Positions 4,804 through 61,931 of a DNA stretch of 64,000 bases are shown here, piece after piece. Made by a program: the position numbers and the translations under genes. The notes under the pieces are model-generated. The model was not told where the DNA came from. It did no database searches and worked only from the letters and a program-made list of their open reading frames with translations. Source of the stretch: an uncultured Bdellovibrionales bacterium (lineage in GTDB: Bacteria > Patescibacteriota > Minisyncoccia > Moranbacterales > DUUL01); NCBI GenBank assembly GCA_964421125.1, contig CAYQVD010000002.1, forward strand, positions 13,579-77,578, read 5' to 3'. Numbering within the stretch: position 1 is the first letter of the stretch; each line of letters starts with the position of its first letter.

Positions 4804-4815
4804 GTTTCTTTATAT

Positions 4816-11343: not shown

Positions 11344-11396
11344 TTTTCTTACTCCCCCGAGTTTAACTGATTAAAAAATATATATATAAACTTATA

Positions 11397-21860: not shown

Positions 21861-21895
21861 AAAAACAGCCCTGAAAAATCAAGGCTGTTTTTGGA
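21861..21895 (-). terminator. Intrinsic terminator after tuf.
   Basis: aaacagcc...ggctgttt stem with a T-run on the minus strand. Confidence 0.55.
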
Positions 21896-21910
21896 ATATA
21901 TTGAAAAGAT

Positions 21911-32189: not shown

Positions 32190-33602
32190 TTATTCTACAC
32201 TCAACCCCGTTGGATAAGATGGTGGGGTAATGTCAAAAGATTCATATTCAAATGCGCCTATATCAATCATTGATCTCGCATTTCCGCTATAATCAGTTGA
32301 TGGATAATAGCCACTTCCAGCTGTACCATAACCACCGTCAATTGCATCTGTTGACAACACCGTTAGAGCCGCTCCTGCCGTAAGATTATTAATGTCCAAA
32401 AAGTTCGGATCGTATAATGACCCATCCAAATCTTTAAAGTTTCCAGAGTCCGTCCCTGGCGTACTGCCTTCGAGTATCGAGGCTACATCATAAAAAATAT
32501 TATTTCTTATACTAAAATTACTAGCATTCTCAACTAAATCCGCCCCCGTGTTCATGTCATAAAAAATATTATTATGAATGTATATATAATCACTGGAATT
32601 TGCGGACATACGATTTTCTCCAACTCCATCTGATATAATTGTGTTGTTTATAAACCAGATTATAACGTCATAAGGGTAAGCTGTGTACCTGTGAAGGACA
32701 TTCAAAGTGTCTCCGGAAGGGCAATTTTCACAAAGATCAATCACATTATTTCTGATAACGTATAAATTATTTGATCCCGATCCGGTAGACAAACCCCTAA
32801 TCCATATTACTTTCGGACTTGCTGATCGGCTATCACACCCATGAATATAATTATTTTCCCAATAGGACACATAATTACTGCCCGAATTTACATTCTTTAG
32901 TGTAGTTCCAGTTATCCCAATCACTTCATTACCTTGAAAATTTCCGTATGATCCGTATTTCCACTCTATAGTCATGGTATAATAATAACTATTCCAGGCA
33001 ACCCCATACATCGTAATCAGACAATCAACAATGTTAAAAACACTATTTCCCTTTGCCATCATTAACGATTCAGTTACAGAAGAACCGTCATAACCTTTTC
33101 CGCTAACATCGCACCCAGTTATATCTATTGCAGTTGAATTGTCCAAAAAAACAGCCATTGTGTTTAATGCACCACGCATTTCTATATTGCTTACAGAAAT
33201 ATTGGTCGAATCTATAAATTGCAAAACACACCAGTTCGGATCAAGCGTTGATGGTGTAGTATCCACCTGTTCAGTATTGTCTATAAGTGGTTTTGACCCA
33301 GTACCGTAAGAATCAATCGTGATATTGCTTTTTCCATCAAAGTGAAGAGAGGCGTAAGATTCGTTTGCTGTACTTGTCCATGTATCACCTTTATTTAGAT
33401 AGACCGTATCACCACTACTGATAGATGTACGGATTTTATCAAGTGATGCCCATGCCGTTGCATCTGAGGTGCCAGCACTCCCATCATTGCCCCCAGTTTT
33501 AATATAATAGGTGGCCGCCTCCGAACTTCCCACTAACCCAAAAAAACTAAAAAATATTATTAGGGTGAGGATAACTTTAAGTTTTGAGTATTTGTTTTGC
33601 AT
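32190..33602 (-). CDS. Secreted right-handed parallel beta-helix (pectate-lyase-like) repeat protein.
   Basis: Signal peptide followed by repetitive N/G/T/S-rich beta-helix rungs. Local GC is higher than in neighbouring genes. Confidence 0.6.
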   Translation of the reverse strand: MQNKYSKLKVILTLIIFFSFFGLVGSSEAATYYIKTGGNDGSAGTSDATAWASLDKIRTSISSGDTVYLNKGDTWTSTANESYASLHFDGKSNITIDSYGTGSKPLIDNTEQVDTTPSTLDPNWCVLQFIDSTNISVSNIEMRGALNTMAVFLDNSTAIDITGCDVSGKGYDGSSVTESLMMAKGNSVFNIVDCLITMYGVAWNSYYYTMTIEWKYGSYGNFQGNEVIGITGTTLKNVNSGSNYVSYWENNYIHGCDSRSASPKVIWIRGLSTGSGSNNLYVIRNNVIDLCENCPSGDTLNVLHRYTAYPYDVIIWFINNTIISDGVGENRMSANSSDYIYIHNNIFYDMNTGADLVENASNFSIRNNIFYDVASILEGSTPGTDSGNFKDLDGSLYDPNFLDINNLTAGAALTVLSTDAIDGGYGTAGSGYYPSTDYSGNARSMIDIGAFEYESFDITPPSYPTGLSVE

Positions 33603-33771: not shown

Positions 33772-34821
33772 CTACAATCCATGAACCACTTTATTACGAT
33801 TATGTTCTTCTAATGTAACAGAATAAACCATTTCTCCTGTTCCTGGATCAGTTAAAAAGAAATAGTAATTATTTTCATCTGGATAAATAGCTGCTCTAAT
33901 TGCATCTAGTCCCGGATTTGCGATTGGCCCTGGTGGTAATCCCGCATTTTTATAAGTATTATATGGTGAAACAAGCTCAGTATCTTCAATTGAATATTGC
34001 TTTTTATCAATTCCAGTTACATAGGCAAGTGTAGCGCAACTCTGAAGAGGATATTCATCATTCATTCTTTTCCAAAAAATTCCAGAAACAATTCGACGTG
34101 CTTCTGCAGTTTTTGCCTCCTTTTCAATGACTGAGGCCATAGTGATAATTTCATGCAGACTCTTTCCCTGACTTTCAATTTCCTTCATCAAATCGCTATC
34201 AATTTGTTTATTGAAATTGTTAAGAAATTTCATAACAAGAATTTCTGCCGTGTCTTCACTATCAATAAAATATGTATCAGGGAAAAGATATCCTTCAATG
34301 TCCACTCCTTCCGGAATTGTTTTCAAGAAATCATATCTTTGCAAGACTTTTCCGCAAGCACACTCCTCAACTTCTTGAAGACATTGGCAACTAGCAATTT
34401 TCTCAAATTGAGACCCAATCTCAGGATCAATTTTTTTTAACCTTTCTGCAATTTTTTTATTTGTAAATCCTTCCGGAACAGTAAGTTTTTTAATTTCTGG
34501 ATTATTCTCTCCTTCAATTAAAATTAAAGTAATTTCAGGTATTGTTAAATTCGAAGTAAGTTCAAAATTTCCAGCCTGAATTTTACTGCCCGAGTCATTC
34601 TTCCAAATATAAAAATAGAAAAAATACTTGTTTAAAATAAGCCCATCATCTTCCAAGTTAGCACCAATCTCCTTAGCACTTTGTCCTTCTTTAATTTCAA
34701 ATTCCACAGGAATATTTGAATCACTAGCAGTTGAGTTCAAAACTGAATTTTCAAAAAATTTAAATCCCACAAAAACCAGGGCAAATAAAATCACCAAGGC
34801 AAATAAAATTTTATTTATCAT
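33772..34821 (-). CDS. mltG: Endolytic murein transglycosylase MltG (YceG family).
   Basis: N-terminal TM and the YceG domain, including the IPEG-like motif. Confidence 0.8.
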   Translation of the reverse strand: MINKILFALVILFALVFVGFKFFENSVLNSTASDSNIPVEFEIKEGQSAKEIGANLEDDGLILNKYFFYFYIWKNDSGSKIQAGNFELTSNLTIPEITLILIEGENNPEIKKLTVPEGFTNKKIAERLKKIDPEIGSQFEKIASCQCLQEVEECACGKVLQRYDFLKTIPEGVDIEGYLFPDTYFIDSEDTAEILVMKFLNNFNKQIDSDLMKEIESQGKSLHEIITMASVIEKEAKTAEARRIVSGIFWKRMNDEYPLQSCATLAYVTGIDKKQYSIEDTELVSPYNTYKNAGLPPGPIANPGLDAIRAAIYPDENNYYFFLTDPGTGEMVYSVTLEEHNRNKVVHGL

Positions 34822-35257
34822 AAAAAAATAATTAATTAAAAAATATTATCACACTTAAAAATATCTGATTGCAATGCAATCCCCTTTTAAGAATAATCTT
34901 CATTCTCTCTGGGAATAAAATTTTCTACAAAAATTTTGTCTGAAAACCCAAATTTTGTCCTAGAGTCTATTTCTAATCTCCATATTCTGCTGCAAATTCC
35001 TAATTTCAGCTACAAAAAACTCATCACTCGTTGAAATAACATTCGTTATTCCTTCCTCATTCTTCACTTTTTTCGCTTGAACTTTGAAATTTTCGTAACG
35101 AAAGAGAAATTAGGAATAGACTCTTGATCGTCCAAGGTGGTATTGAATGTGGGTAAGATTTTCAGTTATAAAATTTAGGGTTTGAGTTTATTTTTTAGAA
35201 AATTTTGTTTCCAAAGAGAAGCTCTTTTCAAATCCACCGCCAACCCAAACACAATTG

Positions 35258-35330
35258 AGATGTGGATAATGTATTTTTGAGAACATGACATTCTAATGGA
35301 ATTTTTCGAAAAAATATATTATCCACATCT
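35258..35330. repeat. Palindromic intergenic element, copy 1.
   Basis: agatgtggataatgtattttt...catgacattctaatgg...aaaaaatatattatccacatct. The arms contain TTATCCACA and TGTGGATAA. Confidence 0.85.
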
Positions 35331-35371
35331 TAGTTACTAACAATTCATAAAAGTAAAAACAAATAATCAGG

Positions 35372-36706
35372 CTAATCAGTTCTTTCAGAAACAATCACCT
35401 TTTCTCCTGCCTTCAATCCGCTCTTAATTTCTATCATTCCACTATCCCCTTCTAGTCCAACTTGAATCTGTCGCTTCTCAATATTTCCAAGCTCATCAAT
35501 AATTTTCACGGATGTTTTCGATTCATCATAATTAACAGCACTCTGTGGAATTGTCAAAACGCTTTCTCTATTATCTATAAGAATATCTACGTCTGCGCTC
35601 ATTCCTTCTTTCAAACGAGAATCAATTTTATTAAGCTTTAATTTAGCTTTATAATAAACAACATCCTGAATAATTGTAGCAGCTGGATTGATCTCAATGA
35701 CTTGTGCTTCAATTGTTTCATCAAAAGATAACGCGTCAAAAGATAGTTCTGCTATTTGATCAATTTGAACCTTTGAAATATCAGATTCTGAAATCATAGC
35801 TTCCAAAATGAAATCCTTGGAAATCATTTTTCCAAAACTTGTTACACCGACCGAAGAAGATCCTAAAACCTCCCCTTCTTCATAATTAATTTCAGCAATC
35901 ATTCCATTGACTGGAGCTTTCAAGGAAGATTTTTCTAAATTAGCAACTGCGATATCATAATCAGCTCGAGCAGCTTCAACAACTGCATCCCGACTTCTTT
36001 CTGCATATTGAGACTTGGCTGTTTTTAATGATTTCTTAGCAGAACTCAGTAAATTCTCAGCAGAAACTTTTGCTAAATCTTTTGCCTTATTAACAGTTTC
36101 GATTGCTTGATCTGCACTATTTTTACTTGTTTCAGCCGATCTCATTGTCAACTTAGCACTTTGCACTGCAACACTGCCCTCACCTGAAGCAGTAACATTC
36201 AAATCATAATACTCAACTGCTTCATTATAATAATCACTAGCATCTTCATAGGCCTGTTGTGCTGCTAAAACTTTTTGATCCTCTAGGTCATCCACCTCAC
36301 TTAGATAATCCTCAGCATTATCAACTGCCTGTTCTAATTCTCGAATTGTATCATCACTAGAGCCAGCATCAGCAACAGCTTTATTAAGAGCAATTTCGGC
36401 TTTCTCGAGCTGTTTAGTTAAAACATCGCTCGAAAGATTTGCTAAGACTTCTCCGTCTCCAATTTCATCTCCAATTTCAACTTTCACTACTCCCACTCGA
36501 CCAGAGTTTTCAAAATTTAAAACAACCTCACTTTCCGACTTCAAATCACCCGTTGCCGAAACAGTTTGAGAAATATTTTCGACCTGAACTTCTTCAATAA
36601 GATATTTTTCATTAACATCTTCATCTGTTTGAAATCTCCAAACAATAAAACTAGCTATAATAATAGCAATAACTAAACCAGTAATTATTTTTTTCTTTTT
36701 TGACAT
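35372..36706 (-). CDS. HlyD/membrane-fusion-protein family periplasmic adaptor.
   Basis: N-terminal TM, a long coiled coil, and a C-terminal beta-barrel/lipoyl-like domain. The ORF's N-terminal extension to 36784 is rejected. Confidence 0.7.
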   Translation of the reverse strand: MSKKKKIITGLVIAIIIASFIVWRFQTDEDVNEKYLIEEVQVENISQTVSATGDLKSESEVVLNFENSGRVGVVKVEIGDEIGDGEVLANLSSDVLTKQLEKAEIALNKAVADAGSSDDTIRELEQAVDNAEDYLSEVDDLEDQKVLAAQQAYEDASDYYNEAVEYYDLNVTASGEGSVAVQSAKLTMRSAETSKNSADQAIETVNKAKDLAKVSAENLLSSAKKSLKTAKSQYAERSRDAVVEAARADYDIAVANLEKSSLKAPVNGMIAEINYEEGEVLGSSSVGVTSFGKMISKDFILEAMISESDISKVQIDQIAELSFDALSFDETIEAQVIEINPAATIIQDVVYYKAKLKLNKIDSRLKEGMSADVDILIDNRESVLTIPQSAVNYDESKTSVKIIDELGNIEKRQIQVGLEGDSGMIEIKSGLKAGEKVIVSERTD

Positions 36707-36752
36707 TTTTTTTATTTTTAACACAACAAAAACTTTTTTATTATCAGTTAAG

Positions 36753-36821
36753 CTGTAGATAATGTATTTTCGAGAGCATGACATTCTGATGGAATTTTTC
36801 GAGAAAATATGTTATCTATAG
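36753..36821. repeat. Palindromic intergenic element, copy 2.
   Basis: ctgtagataatgtattttcgagagcatgacattctgatggaatttttcgagaaaatatgttatctatag. Confidence 0.85.
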
Positions 36822-36829
36822 TTTAATCC

Positions 36830-37711
36830 CTATTTCATATTTCTATTATATAACGTTAATGTATTTTTTAAAAGCATTGCAACTGTCACCGGACCAACCC
36901 CGCCAGGCACTGGTGTTATGAATCTTACTTTTTCTTCCGCTTCTTTAAAATTAACATCTCCTAAAATATCATCTCCCTCTTTTGTAATCCCTATATCAAT
37001 CACTACTGCATTTTCTTTAATCGTATCTCCACCAATGAACTCTGGGCGACCGACCGCCGAAATTAGAAGATCGGCCTTGATTGTTTTATTTTTCAACTCA
37101 GAATCATCTGCTTGGATCAAATCAATTTTTCCACCCCGACACTCAAGAACTTTAGCTAAACTTTTTCCGAAAATATCAGAATTTGAAACTACACAAACTT
37201 TTTTATCTTTCAAATCAAAATCAATATCCTCCAATATTTCAATCACAACCTGCAACACTGGCGGAATCACATCTTCATGGCTACACGTTTCCAACAGCTT
37301 TTTCAAGTTTTCTGGATGAAATCGATCAACATCTTTTTCTGGATCAATAGCTTTAATAATCCTGTCCGTATCAAGACCTTCCGGTAACGGCAACTGAACC
37401 AAAATCGCATCCACATCATCATCTTGATTTAAATATTCTATTGTTTTTATAATGTCCTCTTCCGACGCTTCTTGCGAACTTCGATAAACATTAATATTCA
37501 TCCCCACCTTCCTAGCTTCTTTTTCTTTCAATTTAACATAGAGTTTTGAATCCTCTCTTTCGCCAATCAAAACAATCGCAAGTCCTGGCATTCGTTTTCC
37601 TGCTTCTTGCAATTTAACAATTTCCCTTCTCGCTTCGCTACTAATCCTTTCAGCAATTTTCTTGCCATCAATAATCTTCGCTAATTTTTTTTTCATTTTT
37701 TTCATTAACAA
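36830..37711 (-). CDS. folD: Bifunctional methylene-THF dehydrogenase/cyclohydrolase.
   Basis: Signatures IIDGKKIA...GLAIVLIG... and PVPGGVGPVTVAMLL. Confidence 0.9.
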   Translation of the reverse strand: MLMKKMKKKLAKIIDGKKIAERISSEARREIVKLQEAGKRMPGLAIVLIGEREDSKLYVKLKEKEARKVGMNINVYRSSQEASEEDIIKTIEYLNQDDDVDAILVQLPLPEGLDTDRIIKAIDPEKDVDRFHPENLKKLLETCSHEDVIPPVLQVVIEILEDIDFDLKDKKVCVVSNSDIFGKSLAKVLECRGGKIDLIQADDSELKNKTIKADLLISAVGRPEFIGGDTIKENAVVIDIGITKEGDDILGDVNFKEAEEKVRFITPVPGGVGPVTVAMLLKNTLTLYNRNMK

Positions 37712-37762
37712 CTATAAATATCTCTCAATAAAACCTACTAACTTTTTATATAAAAACCTTCT

Positions 37763-38095
37763 TTATTTTTCTTCAGAAACATTCCCAGACTCAATTAATT
37801 CTTGTATTAATTCTTTTTTTATTTTACCTGCTTCAATTTTTAAATCTTTTTTTAATTCATCAGAAACAGAACCTAGAAATTTTTTATACTTTTCAGCAGA
37901 TTTTAAATAATTGACCTCCTTTTCACTAAATTCATCTAAAACTTCTATGAAACTATTTATTCTTGAATCACTCAACTGATCAAGACTACTAATCACATAT
38001 TCTTGAAAACTTGGCGGGAGACCAGATAAAGATAATTTAAATATTAATTCAGCAATTTTGTTTTTTCGATCTTTCATTAAAATACACTTAATCAA
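37763..38095 (-). CDS. Hypothetical 110-aa acidic protein, third gene of the unknown operon.
   Basis: Its start abuts the upstream stop. Confidence 0.5.
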   Translation of the reverse strand: MIKCILMKDRKNKIAELIFKLSLSGLPPSFQEYVISSLDQLSDSRINSFIEVLDEFSEKEVNYLKSAEKYKKFLGSVSDELKKDLKIEAGKIKKELIQELIESGNVSEEK

Positions 38096-39439
38096 TTAAT
38101 TTCCCTTATAACCCAAGAAATCTGCGAGGTAATTCGCACCTTTCACCACTGAATCACTTTTTTCAACTAACTTTTCTTTCATTATTCCTTCTGTAGAGTC
38201 CAAGGCTCCAGTGGCTTTTTCTTTAACATAGTCCATTGCCCCTTCCTTAAGACGCTCTTTGCCAAGATCCCAAAGACTGTCCCATTCTTCTTGTATCCAT
38301 TGCATAACTGGAGCCATTTTCCCTTCTATATAATCTTCCCCTTCATGTATTTTCTCCGCTATAGGACCCCAAGTTCCCATTTTATCCATTCCAATCTTTG
38401 CCAAAGGCAAAGCTCCAAGCATAGTACAAACAACTGCCTTCATATATTTCCCATAGCCACCAAAGGCATCAACCAATTCCTTTTCTACTTCTTTGATTTT
38501 CTTATTATAAGAATCATTTTCCAATTTACCTTCCATGACTATTTTTAATTTTTGAGAGATAGCTTTAGTTATTTCTTCCTTTCCATTTTCTGAATTTGCC
38601 ATTTTCAACCATTTTCCTTCAACTTCTCCAGCAAAATCACCAAGTTTATTTTTGTAATAATTTTCTATACTTGAAATCATTTCTTCGGCAGTTTGATGAG
38701 ATAAATCTTCTATGAAAACATTATTTTCATCAAAAAGCTCTTTCTTCCCAGCTAAAATATTTTTTAAATTATTGAAATCTAAATTGTCCTTATATTCCAA
38801 CTCGAAGAGAGCAATATCTTCTGAAAGTTCTTTTAACTTTTGTTCATTTTCTTTTGGATTTTCTCTTAAGGCACTCAACTCAGATCTAAGATTGCAATAT
38901 TCCTCCATTTTCTCTTTTATATTTTCATCATTCAGGGAATTAATAAAAGACCTTTGAATCAGGTCATCAGATGTTTGTAAATTCTTGTAATCTTCATTTG
39001 AATCACGAACTGCAATATTTTTCCTAAGAGCATCAACCCAGGTTGGTGCTCCCAATAAAAAAACATTGCTAGAAATCTTTGAAAAGTTCTTACCTAAAAA
39101 AGTTGCAATCTTCGTTCCCTTTTCCACTGCTCCATTAATAATCCCTCCAAGATGAGCCGGCAGAATAAAACCAGTAACAAACTTTGAAGCAGCTGGAATA
39201 AGTTTATTGGCTACATCAGATTTAAAATCTAGATACTTTTCAAAAGCCTCCCATGACTTATCTCCCCCTTCCAATAACATCAAAAAACTATCTTCCTTAA
39301 ATTTGCCATAAATTTCTGACATTTTTTGTTTATCAAAAATATCAGAAATCTTTTCCAGCATTCCCTCTTCTTCTTTTTTTTCGTAAGCAAAATTTTTATT
39401 ATCCAAGGCTATCTCACCTCCAGAAATCTTGTTTCTCAT
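38096..39439 (-). CDS. Hypothetical 447-aa protein with no recognisable catalytic motif.
   Basis: Long clean ORF, K/E-rich. Sits 8 nt after the upstream gene. Confidence 0.55.
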   Translation of the reverse strand: MRNKISGGEIALDNKNFAYEKKEEEGMLEKISDIFDKQKMSEIYGKFKEDSFLMLLEGGDKSWEAFEKYLDFKSDVANKLIPAASKFVTGFILPAHLGGIINGAVEKGTKIATFLGKNFSKISSNVFLLGAPTWVDALRKNIAVRDSNEDYKNLQTSDDLIQRSFINSLNDENIKEKMEEYCNLRSELSALRENPKENEQKLKELSEDIALFELEYKDNLDFNNLKNILAGKKELFDENNVFIEDLSHQTAEEMISSIENYYKNKLGDFAGEVEGKWLKMANSENGKEEITKAISQKLKIVMEGKLENDSYNKKIKEVEKELVDAFGGYGKYMKAVVCTMLGALPLAKIGMDKMGTWGPIAEKIHEGEDYIEGKMAPVMQWIQEEWDSLWDLGKERLKEGAMDYVKEKATGALDSTEGIMKEKLVEKSDSVVKGANYLADFLGYKGN

Positions 39440-39447
39440 AGCACAAC

Positions 39448-39873
39448 TTAATTAATTTGTCCCTTCTTTTTTGCGTCCTTCAATTCTCTTTCTAAAGAAT
39501 CTTTTTTGATTTTATCCCAATCTATATTCTCCATAATCCTTTTCTCCACAGCATCAAAATCAATTTCAGGCCCCTTTTTTCTACTATCCAAAGCTGAAGA
39601 AGTTAATCCGATCCAATAATTATTAGGAATTCTATTTTTTATATCATCTGATGAAGCACTTCCTCCTTTCTCTTTAAAAACATCTTCTTCAACCTTCATA
39701 TACTCATCATAAGCGCTTTGAATTTTATCCTTTTCTTCTTGTGAATTAGCTACTTCTAAAACAGCCTCTAGAATTACTTCCTGAGTTTCAATAAAAGCCT
39801 TTCTTGCTTCATTAGATCCATCAAGATTCTCTTGATAGTTTAACATATTTTTTACAAATTTGTCTTCTGACAT
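39448..39873 (-). CDS. Hypothetical 141-aa acidic protein, first gene of the unknown operon.
   Basis: Clean ORF. Confidence 0.5.
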   Translation of the reverse strand: MSEDKFVKNMLNYQENLDGSNEARKAFIETQEVILEAVLEVANSQEEKDKIQSAYDEYMKVEEDVFKEKGGSASSDDIKNRIPNNYWIGLTSSALDSRKKGPEIDFDAVEKRIMENIDWDKIKKDSLERELKDAKKKGQIN

Positions 39874-39981
39874 TTTTTTATATTAATAATTTAATCCTCA
39901 ATCTTATATCTTTTCCCACTAATAATTACTTCTCCACCACGATGCATGTTTTCTAACTTATTTACATTATCATCCTTATTT

Positions 39982-40608
39982 TTAATTTCTTTCCAAACTA
40001 AATTCAATTAATCTTTTTTTGACCACTTCGTCGTCTATTTCAAATCCAGATAGATATTCGACTTCTTCGTCATAATTTACGTCTTCAAAATAAATTAAAG
40101 CCTCACGAAATATCCTTTCATTGAATTCACCTTCAAATATTTTTTTCGCTCGCTCAACAATTTTTTTTATAGAATGATATTTATTTATTATAAAATACAA
40201 ATCGACATAATCTTTCCATTTTGCCCTACGCCTAAGTGCAAAAGCTTTCATCGCACCTAAAGTCAAAAGATCTGGCATTCTTAGAAAATCTTCTAAATTT
40301 TTAGAAAAATCTAAAGCATATGGATAATTAAAAAAAGTGAATTGAACATTATCAATAAAAAAAGTATACTGATCATCTTCATCTTTATACACTTTACCGA
40401 TTTTTCAGCCTTCTTTTTTTATCACTCGTCTAATTTTAGTGCTTTCAAATTCTTTCAATGAAAATAAATCAAAATCAATTGAACGTCGATGTCCAATTTG
40501 CAAGGCAATGGCTGTTCCACCCACCAATCCAAAATTCTTAATAAATTTCTTTACTAACAATAATAATTCTATTTGCTTCTTGGTCAAAATTTCTTTATGC
40601 ATGGGCAT
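39982..40608 (-). pseudogene. AbiEii/DUF1814-type nucleotidyltransferase split by a frameshift in an A7/T7 tract at about 40414-40420.
   Basis: N-terminal piece (40405..40608) carries GGTAIALQIGHRRSIDFDLF. The C-terminal piece (39982..40392) continues the DUF1814 fold. The two frames differ by 1 nt at a homopolymer. Confidence 0.6.
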
Positions 40609-40858
40609 TGAAATATAGTGTAAAATAATGTTTCGTTCTTTTATGATAATTTTGTCTTCCCATTTTTGATGGCTGAGATTTTTCACGAAAAATCCTGGCC
40701 ACTTCTTTAATGCCCAAAATTTTAATGAGTGTTTGCACATCATCCCAATCGCCATAATTCAAAGTGGCCTCCACAATTGATTCTGGTCCGAGTTTGTCAT
40801 AATCCTTTACCCACCAAATCAAATGCTTTCTTTTTTTTATAAAATCATGAATATCCAC
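40595..40858 (-). CDS. Small 87-aa protein directly upstream of the AbiEii-like gene. It is a candidate cognate antitoxin or partner.
   Basis: Position and 12-nt spacing from the nucleotidyltransferase start. Confidence 0.45.
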   Translation of the reverse strand: MDIHDFIKKRKHLIWWVKDYDKLGPESIVEATLNYGDWDDVQTLIKILGIKEVARIFREKSQPSKMGRQNYHKRTKHYFTLYFNAHA

Positions 40859-40921
40859 ACAGCTATTTTAGCATAATTAAAGCCCTAAATCAAAAAATTA
40901 ATCCTGAAATTATGACCGATT

Positions 40922-42169
40922 CTAAACACTCGGAATTGGAAATTCTGTGCAAAGTTTTTTTATTGCTTCTTTAACAGATTTCAACTCCTCTTCATTCTCA
41001 CGATTCATAATCGCCTTGTCAATTAACTCTGTAACTTTTTTTATTTCTTCCTCTTTCATGCCACGAGAAGTTGCAGCTGCTGTTCCGAAACGAACCCCAG
41101 AAGGATTCATTGGTGGATTTGGATCATTGGGAATTGTTGATCGACTCACAGAGATTCCAACTTTTTCAAGAACTTGTTCAGCTTCTTTTCCGCTCACTCC
41201 TTTGCTAGTCATGTCAGCCACAAAAAGATGATTGTCAGTTCCTCCAGAAATCACTCGATAACCTCTATCGATAAAATCTTCTGCCATTGTTTGTGCATTT
41301 AAAATAACTTGTTTTGCATAAACTTTAAAATCATCTTTCAAAACTTCGCCAAAAGCCACGGCCTTGGCAGCTGTAATGTGATCATGCGGTCCACCCTGCA
41401 TTCCAGGAAAAACTGCTCGATCAACTTGTTTAGCAAATTTCTCTTTACACATAATCATCGCTCCTCTTGGTCCTCGAAGAGTTTTGTGAGTGGTCGTTGA
41501 AACAACATCAAAAATCGGCACTGGATTCGCCATCTCTCCTGTCGCAATTAAACCAGCAGTATGAGCAATGTCAGCAAAAGTGAACGCTCCAATCTCATCA
41601 GCAATTTCTTGAAATTTTTCCCATTCAATTTCTCTTGAATAAGCACTATACCCAGCCACAATCATTTTTGGTTTTTCTTTCAGTGCAATTTCTCGAACTT
41701 TTGCCATATCAATTTTTCCAGTCTCTGAATCAACTTCGTATTGAACAAAATTATAAAGCATTCCAGAAAAATTCACTGGATGACCATGAGAAAGATGCCC
41801 ACCATGATCAAGTTTCAATCCCATCACTTTGTCTCCTGGCTTCAAAAATGCAAAATAAACCGCCGCATTGGCCGGAGAACCAGAAAGTGGCTGAACATTG
41901 ACATGCTCGGCATTAAAAAGCTTTTTTGCTCGATCAATTGCAATATTTTCTACTATATCAATCACTTGATTTCCTCCATAATATCGATGTCCTGGATACC
42001 CCTCACTGTATTTGTTTGTCAAAACTGTTCCCATTGCCTCCAAAACTGCCTTCGAAACATAATTCTCCGAAGCAATTAATTCCAGCTCATTAATTTGACG
42101 CTCCTCTTCCAGTTCCACCGCGTCCATTATCTCCTTATCCTCCTGCTCTAAATTTTGATAACTTGGCAT
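40922..42169 (-). CDS. glyA: Serine hydroxymethyltransferase.
   Basis: SHMT core including YSEGYPGHRYYGG, with PLP-binding lysine context. Confidence 0.9.
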   Translation of the reverse strand: MPSYQNLEQEDKEIMDAVELEEERQINELELIASENYVSKAVLEAMGTVLTNKYSEGYPGHRYYGGNQVIDIVENIAIDRAKKLFNAEHVNVQPLSGSPANAAVYFAFLKPGDKVMGLKLDHGGHLSHGHPVNFSGMLYNFVQYEVDSETGKIDMAKVREIALKEKPKMIVAGYSAYSREIEWEKFQEIADEIGAFTFADIAHTAGLIATGEMANPVPIFDVVSTTTHKTLRGPRGAMIMCKEKFAKQVDRAVFPGMQGGPHDHITAAKAVAFGEVLKDDFKVYAKQVILNAQTMAEDFIDRGYRVISGGTDNHLFVADMTSKGVSGKEAEQVLEKVGISVSRSTIPNDPNPPMNPSGVRFGTAAATSRGMKEEEIKKVTELIDKAIMNRENEEELKSVKEAIKKLCTEFPIPSV

Positions 42170-42193
42170 AATATTAAAATTAATTTTAAAAAA

Positions 42194-42556
42194 TTACTTT
42201 GCATCTATTATTCTGTCTAATATTTCCTCTGCAATAGCCTTAAAAAACTCTGGCTTCCTCGTCCAATTAGATTCTTCTGATTTTTCTATCCATCTAATTA
42301 AGTCTTCAAGAGAATATTCTGCTACTACTTCCTTATTCTTTCCAAGACCTGAAAAAGAAATATTTTCTGTAAGTATAGTCTTTTGTATCTTCCCTATTTT
42401 ATCATAACCTCCACTATCATGAAGCCTTTTTTCGATATCATCCCTACTGGCACTCTCTTTTATATTATCACTTCCAAATTCTTCCCTTTGAGAGTTTTTT
42501 TCACCACTATTGAGATTAAGCTTTCCACCACTTTTAAAATCAAAAATTTCTGCCAT
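42194..42556 (-). CDS. Hypothetical 120-aa protein upstream of glyA.
   Basis: Clean ORF. Confidence 0.45.
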   Translation of the reverse strand: MAEIFDFKSGGKLNLNSGEKNSQREEFGSDNIKESASRDDIEKRLHDSGGYDKIGKIQKTILTENISFSGLGKNKEVVAEYSLEDLIRWIEKSEESNWTRKPEFFKAIAEEILDRIIDAK

Positions 42557-42606
42557 TTATTTTCAGTTATTTAAGTTATTTTCTTAAAAACTATATTCAA
42601 TCAATT

Positions 42607-42678
42607 TAGATGTAGATAATGTATTTTCGAGGATCTCGCCATTCTGATGGCGTTGCGAGAAAAAATGTTATCTACATC
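42607..42678. repeat. Palindromic intergenic element, copy 3. Its internal loop is replaced by a compensatory cgccat/atggcg hairpin.
   Basis: agatgtagataatgtattttcgag...cgccattctgatggcg...gagaaaaaatgttatctacatct. Confidence 0.85.
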
Positions 42679-42716
42679 TAAATTTAAAACTACTACAACT
42701 CTCTTAAAGAATAAAC

Positions 42717-43160
42717 CTAATCCCGAAACTGCGTTGTCTTATCAATTCCGAAAAAATAATACCACCAATAATAATAGTTAGGACGATTAACGGTGATTTC
42801 AGTTTCATTATCAACCTGAACTGGTTCAACTGCAATATCTTTTTCTTTTATCAAAACCAATTTTTCACCTTCTTTAACTAAATTTAATTTATCCTTCGTT
42901 TCTTTTTCCTTGAATTCATCTGTTTGAAAATAATCAATCAATCCTTGAAGATTTTTGTTGTCCTGATTTAATTTATCAATTTCTGCTTGAAGTTCTGCAA
43001 CTTCACGATTAACTTGCTTTTGCTTATAAGCCTCTTCTGAGTATTTAAAACCAATAAAAAATAACAAAGCAACACCAAAAAGTATCGCGATTCGAAATCC
43101 CAAATTCTTTAATAAAACACTACCTTTACGATCACGATTTTTTCGAGAACTCTTATTCAA
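42717..43160 (-). CDS. FtsB/DivIC-like septum formation initiator.
   Basis: Single TM, a coiled coil (VAELQAEIDKLNQDNKNLQ), and a C-terminal aromatic tail. Confidence 0.55.
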   Translation of the reverse strand: MNKSSRKNRDRKGSVLLKNLGFRIAILFGVALLFFIGFKYSEEAYKQKQVNREVAELQAEIDKLNQDNKNLQGLIDYFQTDEFKEKETKDKLNLVKEGEKLVLIKEKDIAVEPVQVDNETEITVNRPNYYYWWYYFFGIDKTTQFRD

Positions 43161-43463
43161 CTTTTAATGTTTTTATAAATTATTTTTGAAAATAAACTTG
43201 TTTTAGAATCTCTCTACATTGACTGAAAAAGTGGAACTAAAGTGAAACCAACCATTCCAAGAATTCCAAGAAGGGAAATAATAATCCAAATTATTCTCAT
43301 TTTTTTTCTTGTTCTATTTACCATAATATAAAAATATTAACACACTTATTAAAAAGAATCTAGAATATTGAATTTTATTTTTAAACTCTCGCCCTTATTA
43401 TTTCACTATTTTTAATTCCCATTCTAAATTCAAAATTCTTAATTCAAGATTCCAATTAAGTTA

Positions 43464-43492
43464 TTGACTATCCCTGATTATCCTGTTAAAAT
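43464..43492 (+). promoter_or_regulatory. Sigma-70-like promoter for rpmH-rnpA-yidC-jag.
   Basis: TTGACT, 17 nt, TAAAAT, lying 40 nt upstream of rpmH. Confidence 0.5.
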
Positions 43493-43531
43493 CCGTATTA
43501 GTCAAATTTATTAAGTGATAATGTTATTCAT

Positions 43532-43669
43532 ATGCCAAAAAGAACATACCAACCAAAGAAAAAGAGGCGAATGCGACGACACGGATTCCTGAAAAGATCC
43601 AGTACTAATGATGGTCAAAAGGTCCTACAAAGAAGAAGACGAAAAGGACGAAAAAAGTTAACAGTTTAA
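43532..43669 (+). CDS. rpmH: 50S ribosomal protein L34. This ORF is missing from the ORF track because it is under 60 aa.
   Basis: Translates to [22 protein letters not shown]... Confidence 0.9.
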
Positions 43670-43701
43670 ACTAAGCCTCTAAAGCTTGGTAATTTTTCTT
43701 T

Positions 43702-44061
43702 ATGTTATCAGAAAAATATAGACTAAAGAGCAAGAAAGAAATTGATCAATTATTCAAGAACGGCAAAGCTGTAAGAAACAGTTTTTTGTTTTTGAAGTAT
43801 AAAGAAAATAATATTGAAAATTCCCACTTTGCCTTTTCTATTGGATTAAAATACTCCAAAAAAGCCGTTGAAAGGAATAAGATGAAAAGAATCCTAAGAG
43901 AAGCAATTCGGCCATTTATTCAGGATATTAAACCTGGATTTGATGGAACATTTTTTCTTTCAAGTGGATTAAATCCTGACAAAAAAAAGATTACTTTAAA
44001 GGAAGCTCAAATCGCAATTGAAGGAGCTCTTGAAAAAGCAAATTTAATAATAACAAAATAA
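43702..44061 (+). CDS. rnpA: RNase P protein component.
   Basis: Basic 119-aa protein in the conserved position after rpmH. Confidence 0.85.
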   Translation: MLSEKYRLKSKKEIDQLFKNGKAVRNSFLFLKYKENNIENSHFAFSIGLKYSKKAVERNKMKRILREAIRPFIQDIKPGFDGTFFLSSGLNPDKKKITLKEAQIAIEGALEKANLIITK

Positions 44062-44070
44062 AAAAACTAA

Positions 44071-44838
44071 ATGTTTGAATTGATCAGCAACATGTTTACT
44101 ACAGCTCTTTATCAACCATTATTCAATGCACTTATAATGATTTACAATATTATTCCTGACATGGGAGTAAGTATTATTATCATAACCGTAATAATTAGAA
44201 TCATTCTTCTTCCTCTTTCTAAAAAAGCGATAGAATCTCAGAAGAAAATGCAAGAAATTCAGCCTGAATTAAAAGAGATTCAAGAAAAATACAAAGACAA
44301 CAAACAAAAAAAGAGTGAAGAGATGATGAAGTTCTACAAAGAAAAGAAAGTAAATCCAGCCGCTGGTTGTCTTCCTCTTATTGTTCAATTAGTTATTCTT
44401 ATTGCGCTATATCGAGTTTTTCTTAACGCTAGTGTAGAATTCGATAGTCACTTGCTATATAGTTTCGTTACCGATCCAGAATCAATTAACAAAATTGCCT
44501 TTGGATTCATTGACATCACTGTAAGAAGTATTCCACTTGCAATTATCGCAGCTGGATTACAATTCTGGCAGACTAAGATGATGATGGCTAAACAAAAAAA
44601 GATTCAGAAGCCAAAAAAAGATTCAGGAAGTCCAGATTTTGGATCAATTATGCAACAACAAATGCTTTTTATTGCTCCAATCATGACTTTTGTTATTGGA
44701 CTTACCTTCCCTGCGGCTCTTCCAATTTACTGGATAGTAACAACTATATTCATGATCGGACAACAATATCACATTATGCATAAAGAAAATAAAGAAAAAG
44801 ACAGTTCCGAAAAACCAAAATTAGATCCTGTAAAATAA
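44071..44838 (+). CDS. yidC: YidC/Oxa1 membrane protein insertase, short form.
   Basis: Five-TM core and conserved gene order. Confidence 0.85.
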   Translation: MFELISNMFTTALYQPLFNALIMIYNIIPDMGVSIIIITVIIRIILLPLSKKAIESQKKMQEIQPELKEIQEKYKDNKQKKSEEMMKFYKEKKVNPAAGCLPLIVQLVILIALYRVFLNASVEFDSHLLYSFVTDPESINKIAFGFIDITVRSIPLAIIAAGLQFWQTKMMMAKQKKIQKPKKDSGSPDFGSIMQQQMLFIAPIMTFVIGLTFPAALPIYWIVTTIFMIGQQYHIMHKENKEKDSSEKPKLDPVK

Positions 44839-44865
44839 CTTATAAAAAGTTTTAATATTACTATT

Positions 44866-45333
44866 ATGGAAAATGAAGAAAAAAAGAAATCTCTTGAAAG
44901 CATCACAAAAGAACTATTAGAAAAAATGGACATTCAAGGAACTGTCTATATTGCCGAAAATGCAGTTTCAGAAGATGGTGCAATTTCAATCGAAATACAA
45001 ACTAGTGATTCAAGCTATCTAATCGGTAGAGGAGGAATAAATCTTTCAGCCCTGCAACACATTATTCGAATTCTTGCTCGAAAAAAAATCGGCGAACAAA
45101 TGCAATTCACTGTTGATGTTAATGGATACCGAGATGATCAAAAACAAATCCTCATTGATAAAACTCAAGAAGTAATTAAAGAAATACGAAATAGAAAAAA
45201 ACCAATAGAACTGTCTCCGATGAATTCTTACGAAAGAAGAATTGTTCATATGGAAATTTCAAAAAATTCAGACGTTGAATCCGATAGCATTGGAGAAGAT
45301 GAGGAACGAAGAGTAGTAGTTAAACTAGCTTAA
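44866..45333 (+). CDS. jag: Jag/KhpB-like KH plus R3H RNA-binding protein.
   Basis: R3H motif (YERRIVHMEIS) and conserved position after yidC. Confidence 0.8.
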   Translation: MENEEKKKSLESITKELLEKMDIQGTVYIAENAVSEDGAISIEIQTSDSSYLIGRGGINLSALQHIIRILARKKIGEQMQFTVDVNGYRDDQKQILIDKTQEVIKEIRNRKKPIELSPMNSYERRIVHMEISKNSDVESDSIGEDEERRVVVKLA

Positions 45334-45374
45334 TTCTTTTCTCGTTCACAAAACATTTCAAAAAAACAAATACA

Positions 45375-45494
45375 GGAATCACACGTTTGAGTGCAGTTCG
45401 AGGCAAAAACGAGCATTTAAGCAAAGCTGTATCATTTATACAGCGAGCGAGAAGCGCAGTTTTTAACAAAGAAATGTGCCAAACGTGTAATTCC
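45375..45494 (+). other. GC-enriched structured element, possibly a ncRNA or leader, upstream of the flippase gene.
   Basis: 15-bp closing stem ggaatcacacgtttg/caaacgtgtaattcc with one mismatch. It encloses about 90 nt containing the sub-hairpin gctgtat-cattt-atacagc. Confidence 0.35.
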
Positions 45495-45523
45495 TAAAAT
45501 ATAAATTTTAAATAAACTACATA

Positions 45524-46945
45524 ATGTCAGTTCCAAGAAAAATTGCTTATAATGTAATTTTTTCATCATCGGCAAAGATTTTGAGCACTATTGTCGCGTT
45601 GATTGGAATTGGTCTTATTACAAGATATCTTGGACAAGAAGGTTTTGGTCGTTATGCGACCGCTCTTGCCTTTCTATCTCTTTTCGGTGCACTAGGAGAT
45701 TGGGGAATCTATCAAGTTGCTACTCTCCGAATTTCCCGTGATAAAGCTGATGAAAGAAAAGTACTTTCTAACGCCATGGGACTTCGAATTACAGTTTCTC
45801 TAGCTGTTATTATCATTGCTCCATTAATAATCTATATTCTTCCTTACGGAAAAGAACTAAAAATCGCTCTGATTTTTATTGCATTTTCTTACGCATTTTC
45901 TTCTTTCTATCAAGTAATTGTTGGACTTTTTCAAAAAAAGCTCCGAATGGACCTCGTGACTGGTTCAGAATTAATAGGAAAAATTATCCAAGTATCATTA
46001 ATCGTTATTGGAGTAATGAACGATTGGGGATTCTATTTTATTATCATCACACTGTTGATTAACATGATTATTAATTTTACCTTTGTCTTCCTGATATCAC
46101 GGAAATTCATCAAATTCAAACCAGCTTTTGACTTCACTTACTGGAAAAACTTCTTGAAACAATCTATTCCAATCGGACTTGCCGCTCTAGTAACTTTTAT
46201 CTATTTTAAAGCCGACACAATCCTTCTTTCATTAATGAAACCAGCAGAAGATGTTGGAACTTATGGAGCTGCTTATAAGGTCATTGAAAACATCAGTTTC
46301 TTCCCTGCTATGATTGTCGGTCTAACCCTTCCATTACTTTCTTATAATATCTTTAAAAATCGAGAAAAATTTAAAAATATTGTTAATAAAAATTTCAAAG
46401 TTTTTCTAATCTTAGTTATTCCACTAATTATCGGGACATTCTTTCTCGCCGATGGAATTATTGCTATTATTGCTGGACCAGAATTCGCAGAATCTGCCAT
46501 TGTCCTTAAAATAATAATTTTCGCATCTGCTTTTATTTTCTTTGGACACCTCTTCACAAACATTCTTCTTTCTGCCAATCTCCAAAAAAAACTTTTTATT
46601 GTTTTGTTTTTTTGCGCAATTTTTAATATTACATTAAATTTAATTCTGATCCCTAAGTTCTCCTATCTCGCCACTGCTAGCATTTCCGTTGCAACAGAAT
46701 TTCTAGTTATTATGCTAACAGGATTCTTAATCTATCGAAATCTCAAATTTATTCCAAGCTCCAACAAAATTATTCAAATCATTATCTCAGGAGTTTTAAT
46801 GACACTTTTTTTATGGTTCACTCAAGACATTAACTTCTTCCTTCGTCTTCTTGTCAGCCCTATGATTTATTTTGGAAGTTTAATCATTTTAAATGTCATC
46901 TCTAAAAATGAAATTCTTTCATTTGTCAAAAAAGACGCGTCCTAA
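45524..46945 (+). CDS. Wzx-like oligosaccharide/polysaccharide flippase (MOP superfamily).
   Basis: About 14 TM helices and characteristic length. Confidence 0.7.
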   Translation: MSVPRKIAYNVIFSSSAKILSTIVALIGIGLITRYLGQEGFGRYATALAFLSLFGALGDWGIYQVATLRISRDKADERKVLSNAMGLRITVSLAVIIIAPLIIYILPYGKELKIALIFIAFSYAFSSFYQVIVGLFQKKLRMDLVTGSELIGKIIQVSLIVIGVMNDWGFYFIIITLLINMIINFTFVFLISRKFIKFKPAFDFTYWKNFLKQSIPIGLAALVTFIYFKADTILLSLMKPAEDVGTYGAAYKVIENISFFPAMIVGLTLPLLSYNIFKNREKFKNIVNKNFKVFLILVIPLIIGTFFLADGIIAIIAGPEFAESAIVLKIIIFASAFIFFGHLFTNILLSANLQKKLFIVLFFCAIFNITLNLILIPKFSYLATASISVATEFLVIMLTGFLIYRNLKFIPSSNKIIQIIISGVLMTLFLWFTQDINFFLRLLVSPMIYFGSLIILNVISKNEILSFVKKDAS

Positions 46946-47007
46946 ATTAAAAATTAAAACAAAAAAGCAATTTTTAAAAATCCTGCTAAATTAAGATATT
47001 TCGTCTC

Positions 47008-47919
47008 ATGAAAAAATTCTCTATTGCAATTATTATAGTTGGTTTCAATAACGAAAAGACTATTCGGGAGTGTCTCTATTCCCTATTTAAAAATTTTTTA
47101 GGTAAAACCCCCATAAAAGGCAGGATAATTTTCATTGATAATAATTCTTCTGATAAAACCATAAAAGCTGTATTAAAATTAAAAGAATTTTACCCTCATC
47201 TTGATATCATTAAAAATAAAACAAATTTTGGATTTGCAAAAGCTGTGAATCAAGGAATTAAAATTGCTCAGAAAAAATATAATCCTAATTTTTTTATGCT
47301 TCTGAATCCAGATGCAAAGATTGAAACAGAAGGACTAATCAATAAAGCCGTTGAAAGAATTAAAAATTTCTCAAAACCAATTATCGTTTCTCCAAAAATA
47401 ACAAAGGCTTATACTGAAGACCCAATCGATTCATTGAAAAATAAAAAGGAAGTTTGGTTTGAAGGAGGAAGAATAGATTGGCTTAAACAAAAAGTTATTC
47501 ACGAGCCTTCCAATATCTCTGATATTAGAAGCGGAAAATGTTTTCAATCAGATTTCATCTCCGGCTGTGCTATGATTTTCAATAAAAAAACAATAGAAAA
47601 AATTGGACTATTTGATGAAAAATTTTTCCTCTTTTATGAAGACGCCGATTTTTGCCTCCGAACAAAAAAAGTTGGAGGAAAATTAGTGGTTTTTCCTGAC
47701 CTAAAAATATGTCATATCGAATCGGCCTCTTTCTCAAAAAAAGACATCAAGACATACCACCTTGTTAAAAGTGGATTGCTTTTCTTTCATAAACATTCCT
47801 CTAAAAAACTTCTTCTTTTTTTCTGGATAAAATTCTATGCAAGACTCTTTTATCATAAATTTTTTTCCAAGAAAAAAATTGTCTTCAAGGCAATGAAAAA
47901 CTTCAAAGAGGAAATTTAA
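47008..47919 (+). CDS. Family 2 glycosyltransferase.
   Basis: N-terminal GT-A fold with a DxD-like FYEDADF motif. Confidence 0.75.
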   Translation: MKKFSIAIIIVGFNNEKTIRECLYSLFKNFLGKTPIKGRIIFIDNNSSDKTIKAVLKLKEFYPHLDIIKNKTNFGFAKAVNQGIKIAQKKYNPNFFMLLNPDAKIETEGLINKAVERIKNFSKPIIVSPKITKAYTEDPIDSLKNKKEVWFEGGRIDWLKQKVIHEPSNISDIRSGKCFQSDFISGCAMIFNKKTIEKIGLFDEKFFLFYEDADFCLRTKKVGGKLVVFPDLKICHIESASFSKKDIKTYHLVKSGLLFFHKHSSKKLLLFFWIKFYARLFYHKFFSKKKIVFKAMKNFKEEI

Positions 47920-47966
47920 AAAAGTGTGCTATAATAAATCCACCTTCATAACAAGACTAGCTGAAT

Positions 47967-48034
47967 TGTAGATAATGTATTTTCGAGAGCATGACATTCT
48001 AATGAAATTTTTCGAGAAAATATGTTATCTACAT
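47967..48034. repeat. Palindromic intergenic element, copy 4.
   Basis: tgtagataatgtattttcgagagcatgacattctaatgaaatttttcgagaaaatatgttatctacat. Confidence 0.85.
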
Positions 48035-48095
48035 TTCAATCGCTAATCTCATTCGATATTTTAAATAATAGTTTACTAATCTAAATATAAAAAAC

Positions 48096-61115: not shown

Positions 61116-61931
61116 TTAAAGTGGACTTTTAATATTCTTTAGTTTCGGATTTGTTACTTTAGTATAAATTTGTGTTGTTCTAATATTAGCATGACCAAGT
61201 AATTCTTGAACATATCTCACATCAGTTCCATTTTCAAGTAAATGCGTCGCAAAACTGTGTCGAAGTGAATGAAACGTCGCAGATTTTTTTATCCTTGATC
61301 TAATAAGTGCTACATGAAAAACTTTCTGCAATGAAGTAGTTGTTAATTTCCCTCCACGATTACTTTCGAATAAAAAATCGCCCCCATTCTTTCCTAAAAT
61401 CAAAGATTGAATTTCTTCCTTTATTTTTTCAGGAAAAACCGTAATTCGATCTTTTTTCCCTTTGGCATTTTTAATATGAATTATCAATTCTGCTAAGTCA
61501 ACATCTTTCACTTTTAAACTAACAACTTCACTCACCCTAAGACCAGCAGCATATCCCAATGAAACCATTAATTTATGCTTCAAATTTTTGATTTCGTTTA
61601 TAATTTTTTCAATCTCCCCTCTTGATAAAACAACTGGCAATTTTTGACTTCTCTTGGCACATTTAAAGTCAATCTTTTCTTTCAGTTTCAGAACTTCATA
61701 ATATAAAAATTTAACAGAATTCAATGCTAGATTAATTGTTTGAGAAGAATTTCCTTGTTTTTGTCTTTCTAATAAAAAATTTTCAATGGCCTTATTTCTA
61801 TCTTTGATATTTTCTTGCTTAGAAAAATTCAAATATTCTTTTATGTAGAATAAGTAAGCCTTTATTGTCTTTTGACTATAATTTCTTAATTTAAGTAAAT
61901 TTTCTGTTTTTTCTAGAATTGAAGATTGCAT
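61116..61931 (-). CDS. Tyrosine-type site-specific recombinase/integrase (XerC/XerD-like, short).
   Basis: C-terminal catalytic motif HSLRHSFATHLLENG...LLGH...TQIYT. Confidence 0.8.
   Translation of the reverse strand: MQSSILEKTENLLKLRNYSQKTIKAYLFYIKEYLNFSKQENIKDRNKAIENFLLERQKQGNSSQTINLALNSVKFLYYEVLKLKEKIDFKCAKRSQKLPVVLSRGEIEKIINEIKNLKHKLMVSLGYAAGLRVSEVVSLKVKDVDLAELIIHIKNAKGKKDRITVFPEKIKEEIQSLILGKNGGDFLFESNRGGKLTTTSLQKVFHVALIRSRIKKSATFHSLRHSFATHLLENGTDVRYVQELLGHANIRTTQIYTKVTNPKLKNIKSPL

Follow-up and report, generated by a model that had tools for sequence, protein, structure and literature searches.

Bacterial miniature inverted-repeat transposable elements (MITEs), which include Correia/NEMIS of Neisseria, ERIC/IRU of enterobacteria, RUP/BOX of pneumococcus and Nezha of cyanobacteria, are 70-150 bp in length, intergenic and non-coding, and carry terminal inverted repeats, with a TA target duplication noted for Correia. 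REPINs are doublets of repetitive extragenic palindromic (REP) sequences that form hairpins and are mobilised by Y1 transposases termed REP-associated tyrosine transposases (RAYTs), as described by Bertels & Rainey (PMC3337134, PMC3116915); by definition, a REPIN has two inverted conserved units and a less conserved spacer that keeps its hairpin potential (PMC3337134). Repeats are little described in the Patescibacteria (candidate phyla radiation, CPR), the genomes of which are small and tightly packed, and a literature search turned up no account of palindromic interspersed repeats among them. The subject here is a family of ~77-nt imperfect palindromes in an uncultured bacterium of the Patescibacteria, with four copies in a 64,000-nt stretch of contig CAYQVD010000002.1 (the window, taken at its full length) and further copies on other contigs of the same samples. 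The family is previously undescribed and lies within the well-known class of bacterial interspersed palindromic repeats. It is best read as a lineage-specific mobile or selfish palindromic repeat family that resembles MITEs and REPINs and is a strict member of neither, a reading to which a probability of about 0.55 is given.

The four copies of the window are all on the + strand and all intergenic, at 35256-35332 (c1), 36749-36825 (c2), 42606-42681 (c3) and 47962-48038 (c4). These boundaries are those of a covariance model (R1) built from the same four copies, which it scores at 84-103 bits (c1, 102.7; c2, 100; c3, 84.4; c4, 101.1). An earlier note on this DNA had listed four palindromic repeats, all intergenic and some immediately downstream of genes; the repeats are real, the positions given then fall within 2-5 nt of the model boundaries, and each copy lies 9-48 nt past the stop codon of the upstream gene. 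The distances are 42 nt from the stop of the MFP gene for c1, 9 nt from that of FolD for c2 and 39 nt from that of DivIC for c3, these three genes being on the - strand, and 48 nt from that of a glycosyltransferase gene for c4, which lies ~58 nt before a DUF3048 gene. An open reading frame (ORF) listed at 35372-36784 touches c2 solely via an upstream extension; gene calls for this ORF, from the same sequence and from relatives, are of 444-450 aa with the gene end downstream of c2, which excludes the overlap, and c2 is therefore counted as intergenic. The 20-nt left arm, with up to 3 mismatches allowed, has 4 matches in the window, all on the + strand, compared to 0.02 expected from shuffles, and R1 with filters off finds no further full copy in the window or in 16 kb of adjoining contig sequence.

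The elements are 77-85 nt in size, with inverted arms of 23-31 nt and no ORF inside, and consist of nested parts. From the outside in, an alignment of nine copies (A4) includes: (i) an outer stem that is variable yet complementary, (ii) a core stem of GATAATGTATTTTC paired with GAAAATAYRTTATC, which contains one invariant G·T (column 22/69), (iii) an invariant tandem G·A, formed by CGAG opposite CGAG in type A copies or opposite GGAG in type B copies, and (iv) a centre that varies and ends in a small hairpin at the apex, CCAT-TCNN-ATGG. Identity is 0.91-0.95 in the core stem, 0.64-0.75 in the outer stem and 0.67-0.74 in the centre. The outermost 4-8 bp vary among copies and remain complementary, such that conservation is best at mid-stem and not at the termini.

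Pairing is maintained across this variation. Standard pairs make up 93.7% of the cells of the nine-copy alignment, compared to 35-53% when the partners are slid by 1-3 columns, and 12 pairs are altered on both sides; none of 500 shuffles attains the observed values. All four window copies are of type A and differ in how they depart from the consensus. Two fully compensated pair changes mark c1 (GTGGAT/ATCCAC and TTTTTGAG/CGAAAAAA), three private G·T pairs occur in the outer stem of c2, and c3 has a GC-richer centre with the apical hairpin CGCCAT-TCTG-ATGGCG (42637-42652, + strand), of which the apical hairpin of c1, c2 and c4 (CAT-TCTR-ATG) is a weaker version. The earlier note took the centre of copy 3 as a compensatory replacement that suggested selection on structure. 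Structure is indeed kept by compensatory changes, but the cgccat/atggcg centre is not a unique event; it is the centre of a sub-lineage and is found also in type A copies at two loci outside the window (L122 4542-4617 and L098 3478-3553).

The imperfections of the helix are asymmetric. Of the cells in columns 7-29 of the nine copies, 183 are Watson-Crick pairs, 22 are G·T and 2 are of other kinds, and none is A·C; G·T occurs in some copy at nine columns and A·C at none. With G·T present in the absence of A·C, and with the tandem G·A invariant, one strand therefore always folds better. The + strand beats the - strand in 4/4 window copies folded as RNA, and the same strand does so in 8/8 tested family members folded as DNA, which bears out the earlier statement that the + strand folds better through G-U (G-T) pairs, such pairs being on one strand only. 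As RNA, the + strands of the four window copies fold at -22 to -31 kcal/mol (z = -5.4 to -7.9 vs shuffles). Thus, one particular strand is kept foldable. By reasoning, ordinary skew-type mutation pressure would give the opposite kind of mismatch on that strand.

The window belongs to a 93-kb contig of ERZ27316756 (k141_86050), and its closest GlyA homologues carry names that put it in the Patescibacteria, near Falkowbacteria. The population of the window is found in ERZ27316679 and JGI 3300031657 as well as in ERZ27316756, with identical elements. A search for more copies, as proposed by the earlier note, identifies by R1 at least six further full copies on two other contigs of the same samples, Ga0307992_1000060 and Ga0307992_1000143. 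The first of these encodes a RAYT, the exact protein of which also occurs in both samples that hold the window population, and Ga0307992_1000060 is therefore probably from the same genome or a very close one. Only two links tie Ga0307992_1000143 to the population: it comes from the same sample, and one of its type A copies (L122 4539-4619) is 96% identical to c3. Type A includes the four window copies, the L122 and L098 copies named above and L110 4758-4886. Type B, with the outer stem TTTTGGAATACAG, includes L110 4953-5030, L098 3168-3243 and L122 4693-4768. Outside the window, A and B copies form adjacent pairs, 66-234 nt apart, of which the relative order and orientation vary, and remnants adjoin intact copies in L098 and L110.

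The window also contains a decayed A+B pair (15135-15208) in the intergenic DNA between PriA and def. One part is a solo right arm of subtype B (AAAATATATTAGCTGTATTCCAAAAT; 15135-15160, + strand), detected by blastn of the L098, L110 and L122 loci against the window (81-97% identity), and the other is a collapsed type A copy in which both arms are kept and the centre is deleted (GATAATGTTTTATAAAAATATATTATTTACATTTCA; 15173-15208, + strand), as read by eye against the alignment. At L110 4790-4842, a 53-nt GC-rich palindrome lies exactly in the apical loop of the type A copy 4758-4886, such that the hairpin repeats are nested.

A scan of metagenome contigs with a two-arm pattern returns at least 117 loci, mostly chance; among the matches listed, the covariance model upholds those at L098, L110, L122 and L022 as real, and that at L074 is weaker. 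A two-arm pattern has zero matches in IMG/VR viral contigs, and a phage origin is rejected on this basis. At L022 (Ga0172379_10000269), two adjoining palindromes (7757-7862 and 7901-7985) have arms of the GATAAT...TTATC type and differ from the family in their outer stems and GC-rich centres; the LepA of this contig is 52% identical to that of the window, and the first of the two matches was ascertained via the search pattern itself. The GATAAT...TTATC arm motif may thus be common to a wider superfamily.

A comparison of presence and absence, also proposed by the earlier note, finds the sites of c1, c2 and c3 empty in every syntenic relative found (L123, L124, L125-L128 and L135-L137). In L123 and L124, which are the closest (GlyA 93-95% identical), the DivIC-GlyA gap is 61 bp and has no c3; in the window, c3 and an orphan 120-aa ORF, ~490 bp in all, lie between these genes. 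In L125-L128 (GlyA 81-82% identical), no element is detected within ±10 kb with filters off. L135-L137 (MFP 73-76% identical) share the FolD-MFP-YceG-FtsW gene order and have nothing at the c1 or c2 sites; at the c1 site of L135 and L136, the MFP-YceG gap is 69-93 bp, compared to 550 bp in the window. The c2 site holds no element in L125, L126-L128 or L135-L137. The most economical reading of these synteny comparisons is that the elements were gained in the lineage of the window.

The spacer equivalent to the c2 site is itself of note in one relative. In L125, a contig of >0.7 Mb, the FolD-MFP intergenic region (12190-12540) is a spacer of 545 bp that is occupied by other palindromes, rich in GC (GTAGAGACGCATTGCGATGCGTCTCTA, GACGCCCCACCGGGGCGTC and AAGGTTTCACCACTGGTACCGGTGGTGAAACCTT), and a Y1_Tnp gene is located 5 kb off. 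It seems that a given spacer can be colonised by one hairpin family in one lineage and by another family elsewhere.

The reading as a selfish repeat is favoured because the family decays as such a repeat is expected to: a solo arm, a collapsed copy, remnants beside intact copies and a nested insertion are all found. The elements would be non-autonomous mobile DNA that inserted into the intergenic spacers of the lineage. A single strand folded into a long hairpin may be the form relevant to spread or retention, with the conserved mid-stem core as the putative part recognised by protein and an HUH/Y1-type transposase as one candidate for the acting enzyme. This single-stranded DNA mechanism is held only tentatively, below the mobile-repeat reading to which it belongs. 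The compensatory pattern could then reflect selection at the level of the element, in which only foldable master copies propagate; variable spacers that keep their hairpins are explained in this way in the REPIN literature (PMC3337134). Any effects on neighbouring genes, such as termination or insulation of FolD from MFP, would be secondary.

The orientation of the copies separates this reading from a role in the host transcript. Relative to the flanking genes, the ten full copies are divided into 6 sense and 4 antisense; in the window, c4 is the sole copy that is sense to its flanking genes, and c1-c3 are antisense to their - strand neighbours. By contrast, the better-folding strand is the C-rich strand in 9/10 copies once gene direction is allowed for (4/4 in the window, 4/4 in L132 and 1/2 in L122; two-sided binomial of about 0.02), and both remnants of the window agree with this orientation. 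The + strand of the window is C-rich whichever way the genes run, with a GC skew of -0.25 to -0.29 where they are on the - strand and of -0.03 to -0.08 where they are on the + strand. In L132, the + strand is instead G-rich for either gene direction (+0.22 to +0.27, and +0.02), and L122 is like the window. Orientation therefore follows strand composition and not transcription, strand composition serving here as a proxy for replication direction, with the leading and lagging strands inferred from the skew.

These data bear directly on the possibility that the element is a host-functional RNA hairpin that acts in cis as a terminator, an insulator, a stabiliser of mRNA 3'-ends or an RNase III site. 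The position of the four window copies, 9-48 nt past a stop codon and before the next gene, would suit such a hairpin, and c2 is placed precisely in the interval that separates the stop of FolD from the promoter-like sequence of MFP (TGTGTTAAAAAT), upstream of the MFP ATG at 36706. Folding as RNA is strong (z of -5 to -8), pairs such as G-U and tandem G-A are classically compatible with RNA, selection on RNA would explain both the G-U pairs and the covariation, and an RNase III gene is encoded in the window (8103-8825). However, the strand that bears the G-U pairs is antisense to the neighbours of c1-c3, the family as a whole is 6 sense to 4 antisense, and the strand of c2 that would reside within the mRNA folds at only -9.9 kcal/mol. 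No T/U tract is present, though the genome has hairpins with a GC stem and a T tract (e.g., 21851-21902). The same intergenic sites are empty in all relatives, decayed copies exist and no Rfam match is found. Thus, the role in plus-strand RNA envisaged by the earlier note fits poorly, with three of the four window copies antisense and orientation following strand composition, and a host function of the RNA is considered unlikely.

More specific transcriptional signals were also searched for. A terminator scan of 34700-37000 detects nothing at c1 or c2, and no T-run follows any window copy on either strand. The canonical intrinsic terminator is rejected as the element has no T tract and its stems are 26-36% GC. 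A promoter within the element is likewise rejected: inspection shows no suitably spaced -35 for the GATAAT of the left arm, and the same scan is blank at the elements. In Rfam 15, no match at the gathering level occurs in the window, and the matches with E up to 10 are sub-threshold look-alikes of miRNA precursors, that is, generic long hairpins.

The core is far more conserved than the rest of the element, a feature that would suit duplex DNA binding sites in which the inverted core GATAATGTATTTTC ... GAAAATAYRTTATC is bound by a dimeric nucleoid, partition, replication or recombination factor (e.g., Xer). The four copies are clustered around rpmH-rnpA-yidC-jag, in 12.8 kb out of 80 kb of sequence covered (P about 0.014); the gene content of the contig also includes GlyA, FolD, MltG, FtsW/A/Z and the ATP synthase genes. 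The arm sequences TTATCCACA/TTATCTACA presumably resemble DnaA boxes, the arm sequence ATAATGTAT is presumably also found in E. coli dif, and a XerA-like recombinase is encoded at 61116-61931. This gene (- strand, beside lepA) is for a single XerA-type tyrosine recombinase, with an NCBIfam recomb_XerA_Arch score of 225 bits against a cut-off of 220. Duplex binding, however, leaves without reason the compensated variable outer stem and centre and the mismatches that are only G·T. The arm spacing varies, with a 53-nt insertion in one copy, and the copies of other contigs are in unrelated contexts (RNase J-PGI, rpsO-UvrD and NIF3-RmlD). The window has no origin-like switch in GC skew, the 11-6-11 architecture of dif is absent, and the DnaA-box-like outer part varies in subtype B (TTATCTGTA, TTAGCTGTA). 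Duplex binding sites are thus judged decidedly unlikely. Two specific forms were rejected: (i) origin-proximal DnaA boxes or parS with TTATCCACA-like arms, given a + strand that is C-rich throughout, unrelated contexts elsewhere and a variable box-like part, and (ii) dif/Xer-like sites based on ATAATGTAT and the XerA-like gene, rejected as the principal explanation given the multiple copies and no 28-bp architecture. Under the mobile-repeat reading, the clustering and the pairing of A with B copies may reflect hopping over short distances or a preference for landing near existing hairpins.

Two of the window copies are accompanied by DNA that relatives lack. Between c1 and the MltG start is ~435 nt of non-coding DNA (34822-35257) that is missing in syntenic relatives, and c3 lies 50 nt upstream of a 120-aa ORF (42194-42556, - strand) without a family match, with c3 and the ORF forming one ~490-bp stretch absent from the closest relatives. 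The DNA beside c1 is unrelated to the ORF beside c3, which argues that no common cassette is shared, and a mobile cassette of element plus payload is rejected, with c2 and c4 having no added DNA.

The co-insertion of c3 with an orphan ORF and of c1 with novel DNA would, at first sight, fit integron-like attC sites in a cluster of attC sites lacking integrases (CALIN), in which folded single-strand recombination sites bound inserted cassettes. In chromosomal integrons, the recombinogenic strand is on the leading-strand template. The family shares with attC an imperfect palindrome of similar size (~77 nt), conserved imperfections, a variable centre and one orientation among the local copies, and the function of attC depends on one folded strand. 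By contrast, the R''/R' boxes (RYYYAAC/GTTRRRY) are not found on inspection of the alignment, conservation is mid-stem and not at the ends, and housekeeping genes, encoded on both strands, make up the DNA that separates the copies; the DNA neighbouring c1 and c3 is unrelated, and none is added at c2 or c4. The sole tyrosine recombinase is under the cut-off for integron integrase (216 vs 265) and passes that for XerA (225 vs 220). With no R/L core boxes, integron integrase or cassette array, the attC interpretation is largely refuted by the missing boxes and the missing IntI, and is regarded as highly improbable.

Returning to mobile palindromic repeats, the family is like MITEs in that it is small and non-coding with inverted arms, occurs in either gene orientation, shows presence/absence among relatives, has subfamilies and would form long hairpins if transcribed. 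Unlike MITEs, the family shows no direct target-site duplication and is best conserved at mid-stem, and no parent insertion sequence with matching ends was seen in the window, its contig flanks or the related loci. The family also resembles palindrome-associated elements derived from IS200/IS605, in which hairpin imperfections are strand-specific, the target is not duplicated and orientation is biased by replication strand. It differs from the IS608 paradigm of HUH single-strand transposition in forming one long hairpin instead of separate sub-terminal left-end and right-end hairpins, in having no conserved tetranucleotide target found and in that its better-folding strand is apparently on the leading-strand and not the lagging-strand template.

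Similarly to REPINs, the family has core arms that are inverted and conserved (0.91-0.95), a centre that is less so (0.67-0.74) and a hairpin that is kept in all copies, and a bona fide RAYT is encoded on a contig that carries family copies. This RAYT is located at L110 1566-2075 of Ga0307992_1000060 (NCBIfam REP_Tyr_transpos, 86 bits vs a cut-off of 80); no RAYT gene is found in the window. Unlike the units of a REPIN, the arms of the family are not themselves imperfect palindromes; folded alone, they reach 0, -1.1 and -3.1 kcal/mol, compared to -11.7 kcal/mol for the GC-rich REP beside the RAYT. In addition, the RAYT is flanked by this other repeat (GGGTTCAGGGCAGGAGCCACTGAACCCAC) and not by the AT-rich family. 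A RAYT-mobilised REPIN is therefore rejected, as the RAYT has its own GC-rich REPs and the family arms do not fold alone, and the family falls outside a strict definition of REPINs. The label MITE/REP-like of the earlier note is apt for the MITE-like size, the inverted repeats and the presence/absence pattern, and is not for REP arms or a direct target-site duplication.

The repeat beside the RAYT is a second, unrelated family. The GC-rich 29-nt hairpin GGGTTCAGGGCAGGAGCCACTGAACCCAC occurs on both sides of the RAYT gene (L110 1383-1545, 2082-2112 and 2705-2735), with three tandem and one inverted copies upstream and more copies downstream, in a textbook REP-RAYT arrangement; it is not found in the window. 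At least two unrelated families of hairpin repeats, one AT-rich and one a GC-rich REP with its RAYT, are thus present in the same samples, and probably in the same population.

Several observations weigh against a mobile or selfish origin and are set here against the evidence for it. The empty and filled sites include no pair alignable base for base, as the intergenic DNA of the relatives is too diverged; c3 and c1 differ from the relatives by about 490-500 bp and not by the element alone; and the within-population contigs L002 and L003 reveal no insertion polymorphism. A target-site duplication is not found, the flanking 4-5 nt being complementary (TTTA/TAAA and TGAA(T)/(T)TTCA) and not direct repeats; the only repeat on both sides is the self-complementary TTAA, in 2/7 copies. 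A conserved insertion target is likewise not found. In the ~112 kb covered, neither a transposase nor an autonomous element that shares the ends of the family was seen, and the element of the AT-rich family nearest to the RAYT of L110 is 2.7 kb from this gene, which is flanked by a different REP. The tally of 10 full copies plus remnants comes from the ~112 kb attributable to this population, and among GTDB representative genomes the 20-mer arm has two matches, both without a right arm and thus chance. The leading-strand template appears to carry the strand that folds better, opposite to the lagging-strand preference of the IS608 paradigm. Compensatory patterns in palindromes can, moreover, arise without selection by template switching between arms.

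Other features of the window and its related loci are as follows. An orphan, secreted-looking protein of 470 aa (32190-33602, - strand) is inserted between MltG and FtsW, which are adjacent in relatives. Its ORF and an ORF beside the RAYT (L110 2198-2701) share a 53-nt stretch of DNA that is ~85% identical and spans the C-terminal coding end (PPSYPTGLSVE) and the stop codon. At 39982-40755 (- strand), two adjacent ORFs of 136 and 116 aa match different parts of the AbiEii nucleotidyltransferase toxin (PF08843) and probably represent a type IV toxin gene that has been split or has decayed. The AbiEii-like ORFs reside among hypothetical genes (37763-40858), a block that more distant relatives lack between GlyA and FolD. 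At 11395-11541, in the spacer by the start of the gene for anaerobic ribonucleotide reductase (9103-11343, - strand), is a long, imperfect inverted repeat that is AT-rich, has arms of 64 nt with 72% complementarity and has no relation to the family.

A more far-reaching possibility is that the family is the substrate of an undescribed, strand-specific system of Patescibacteria, in which a single-stranded DNA or RNA hairpin would be read via the mid-stem G·T and tandem G·A core, with an orientation tied to the replication strand. This possibility is speculative and rather doubtful, and is ranked below the single-stranded DNA mechanism and above a host function of the RNA. If true, such a system would represent either a domesticated element or a new form of hairpin transposition with no relation to REP/RAYT; in the former case, the host would keep the orientation that limits hairpin extrusion at the fork. 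The elements also mark lineage-specific differences in a syntenic core, as seen for c3 with its orphan ORF and c1 with its novel DNA of 435 bp. In metagenomes, repeats of this kind can cause breaks or wrong joins in the assembly of CPR genomes, and they could be of use as markers of strains. The 22 G·T vs 0 A·C cells, together with the bias in orientation, provide a workable case for the study of how a hairpin repeat is spread or tolerated at replication forks.

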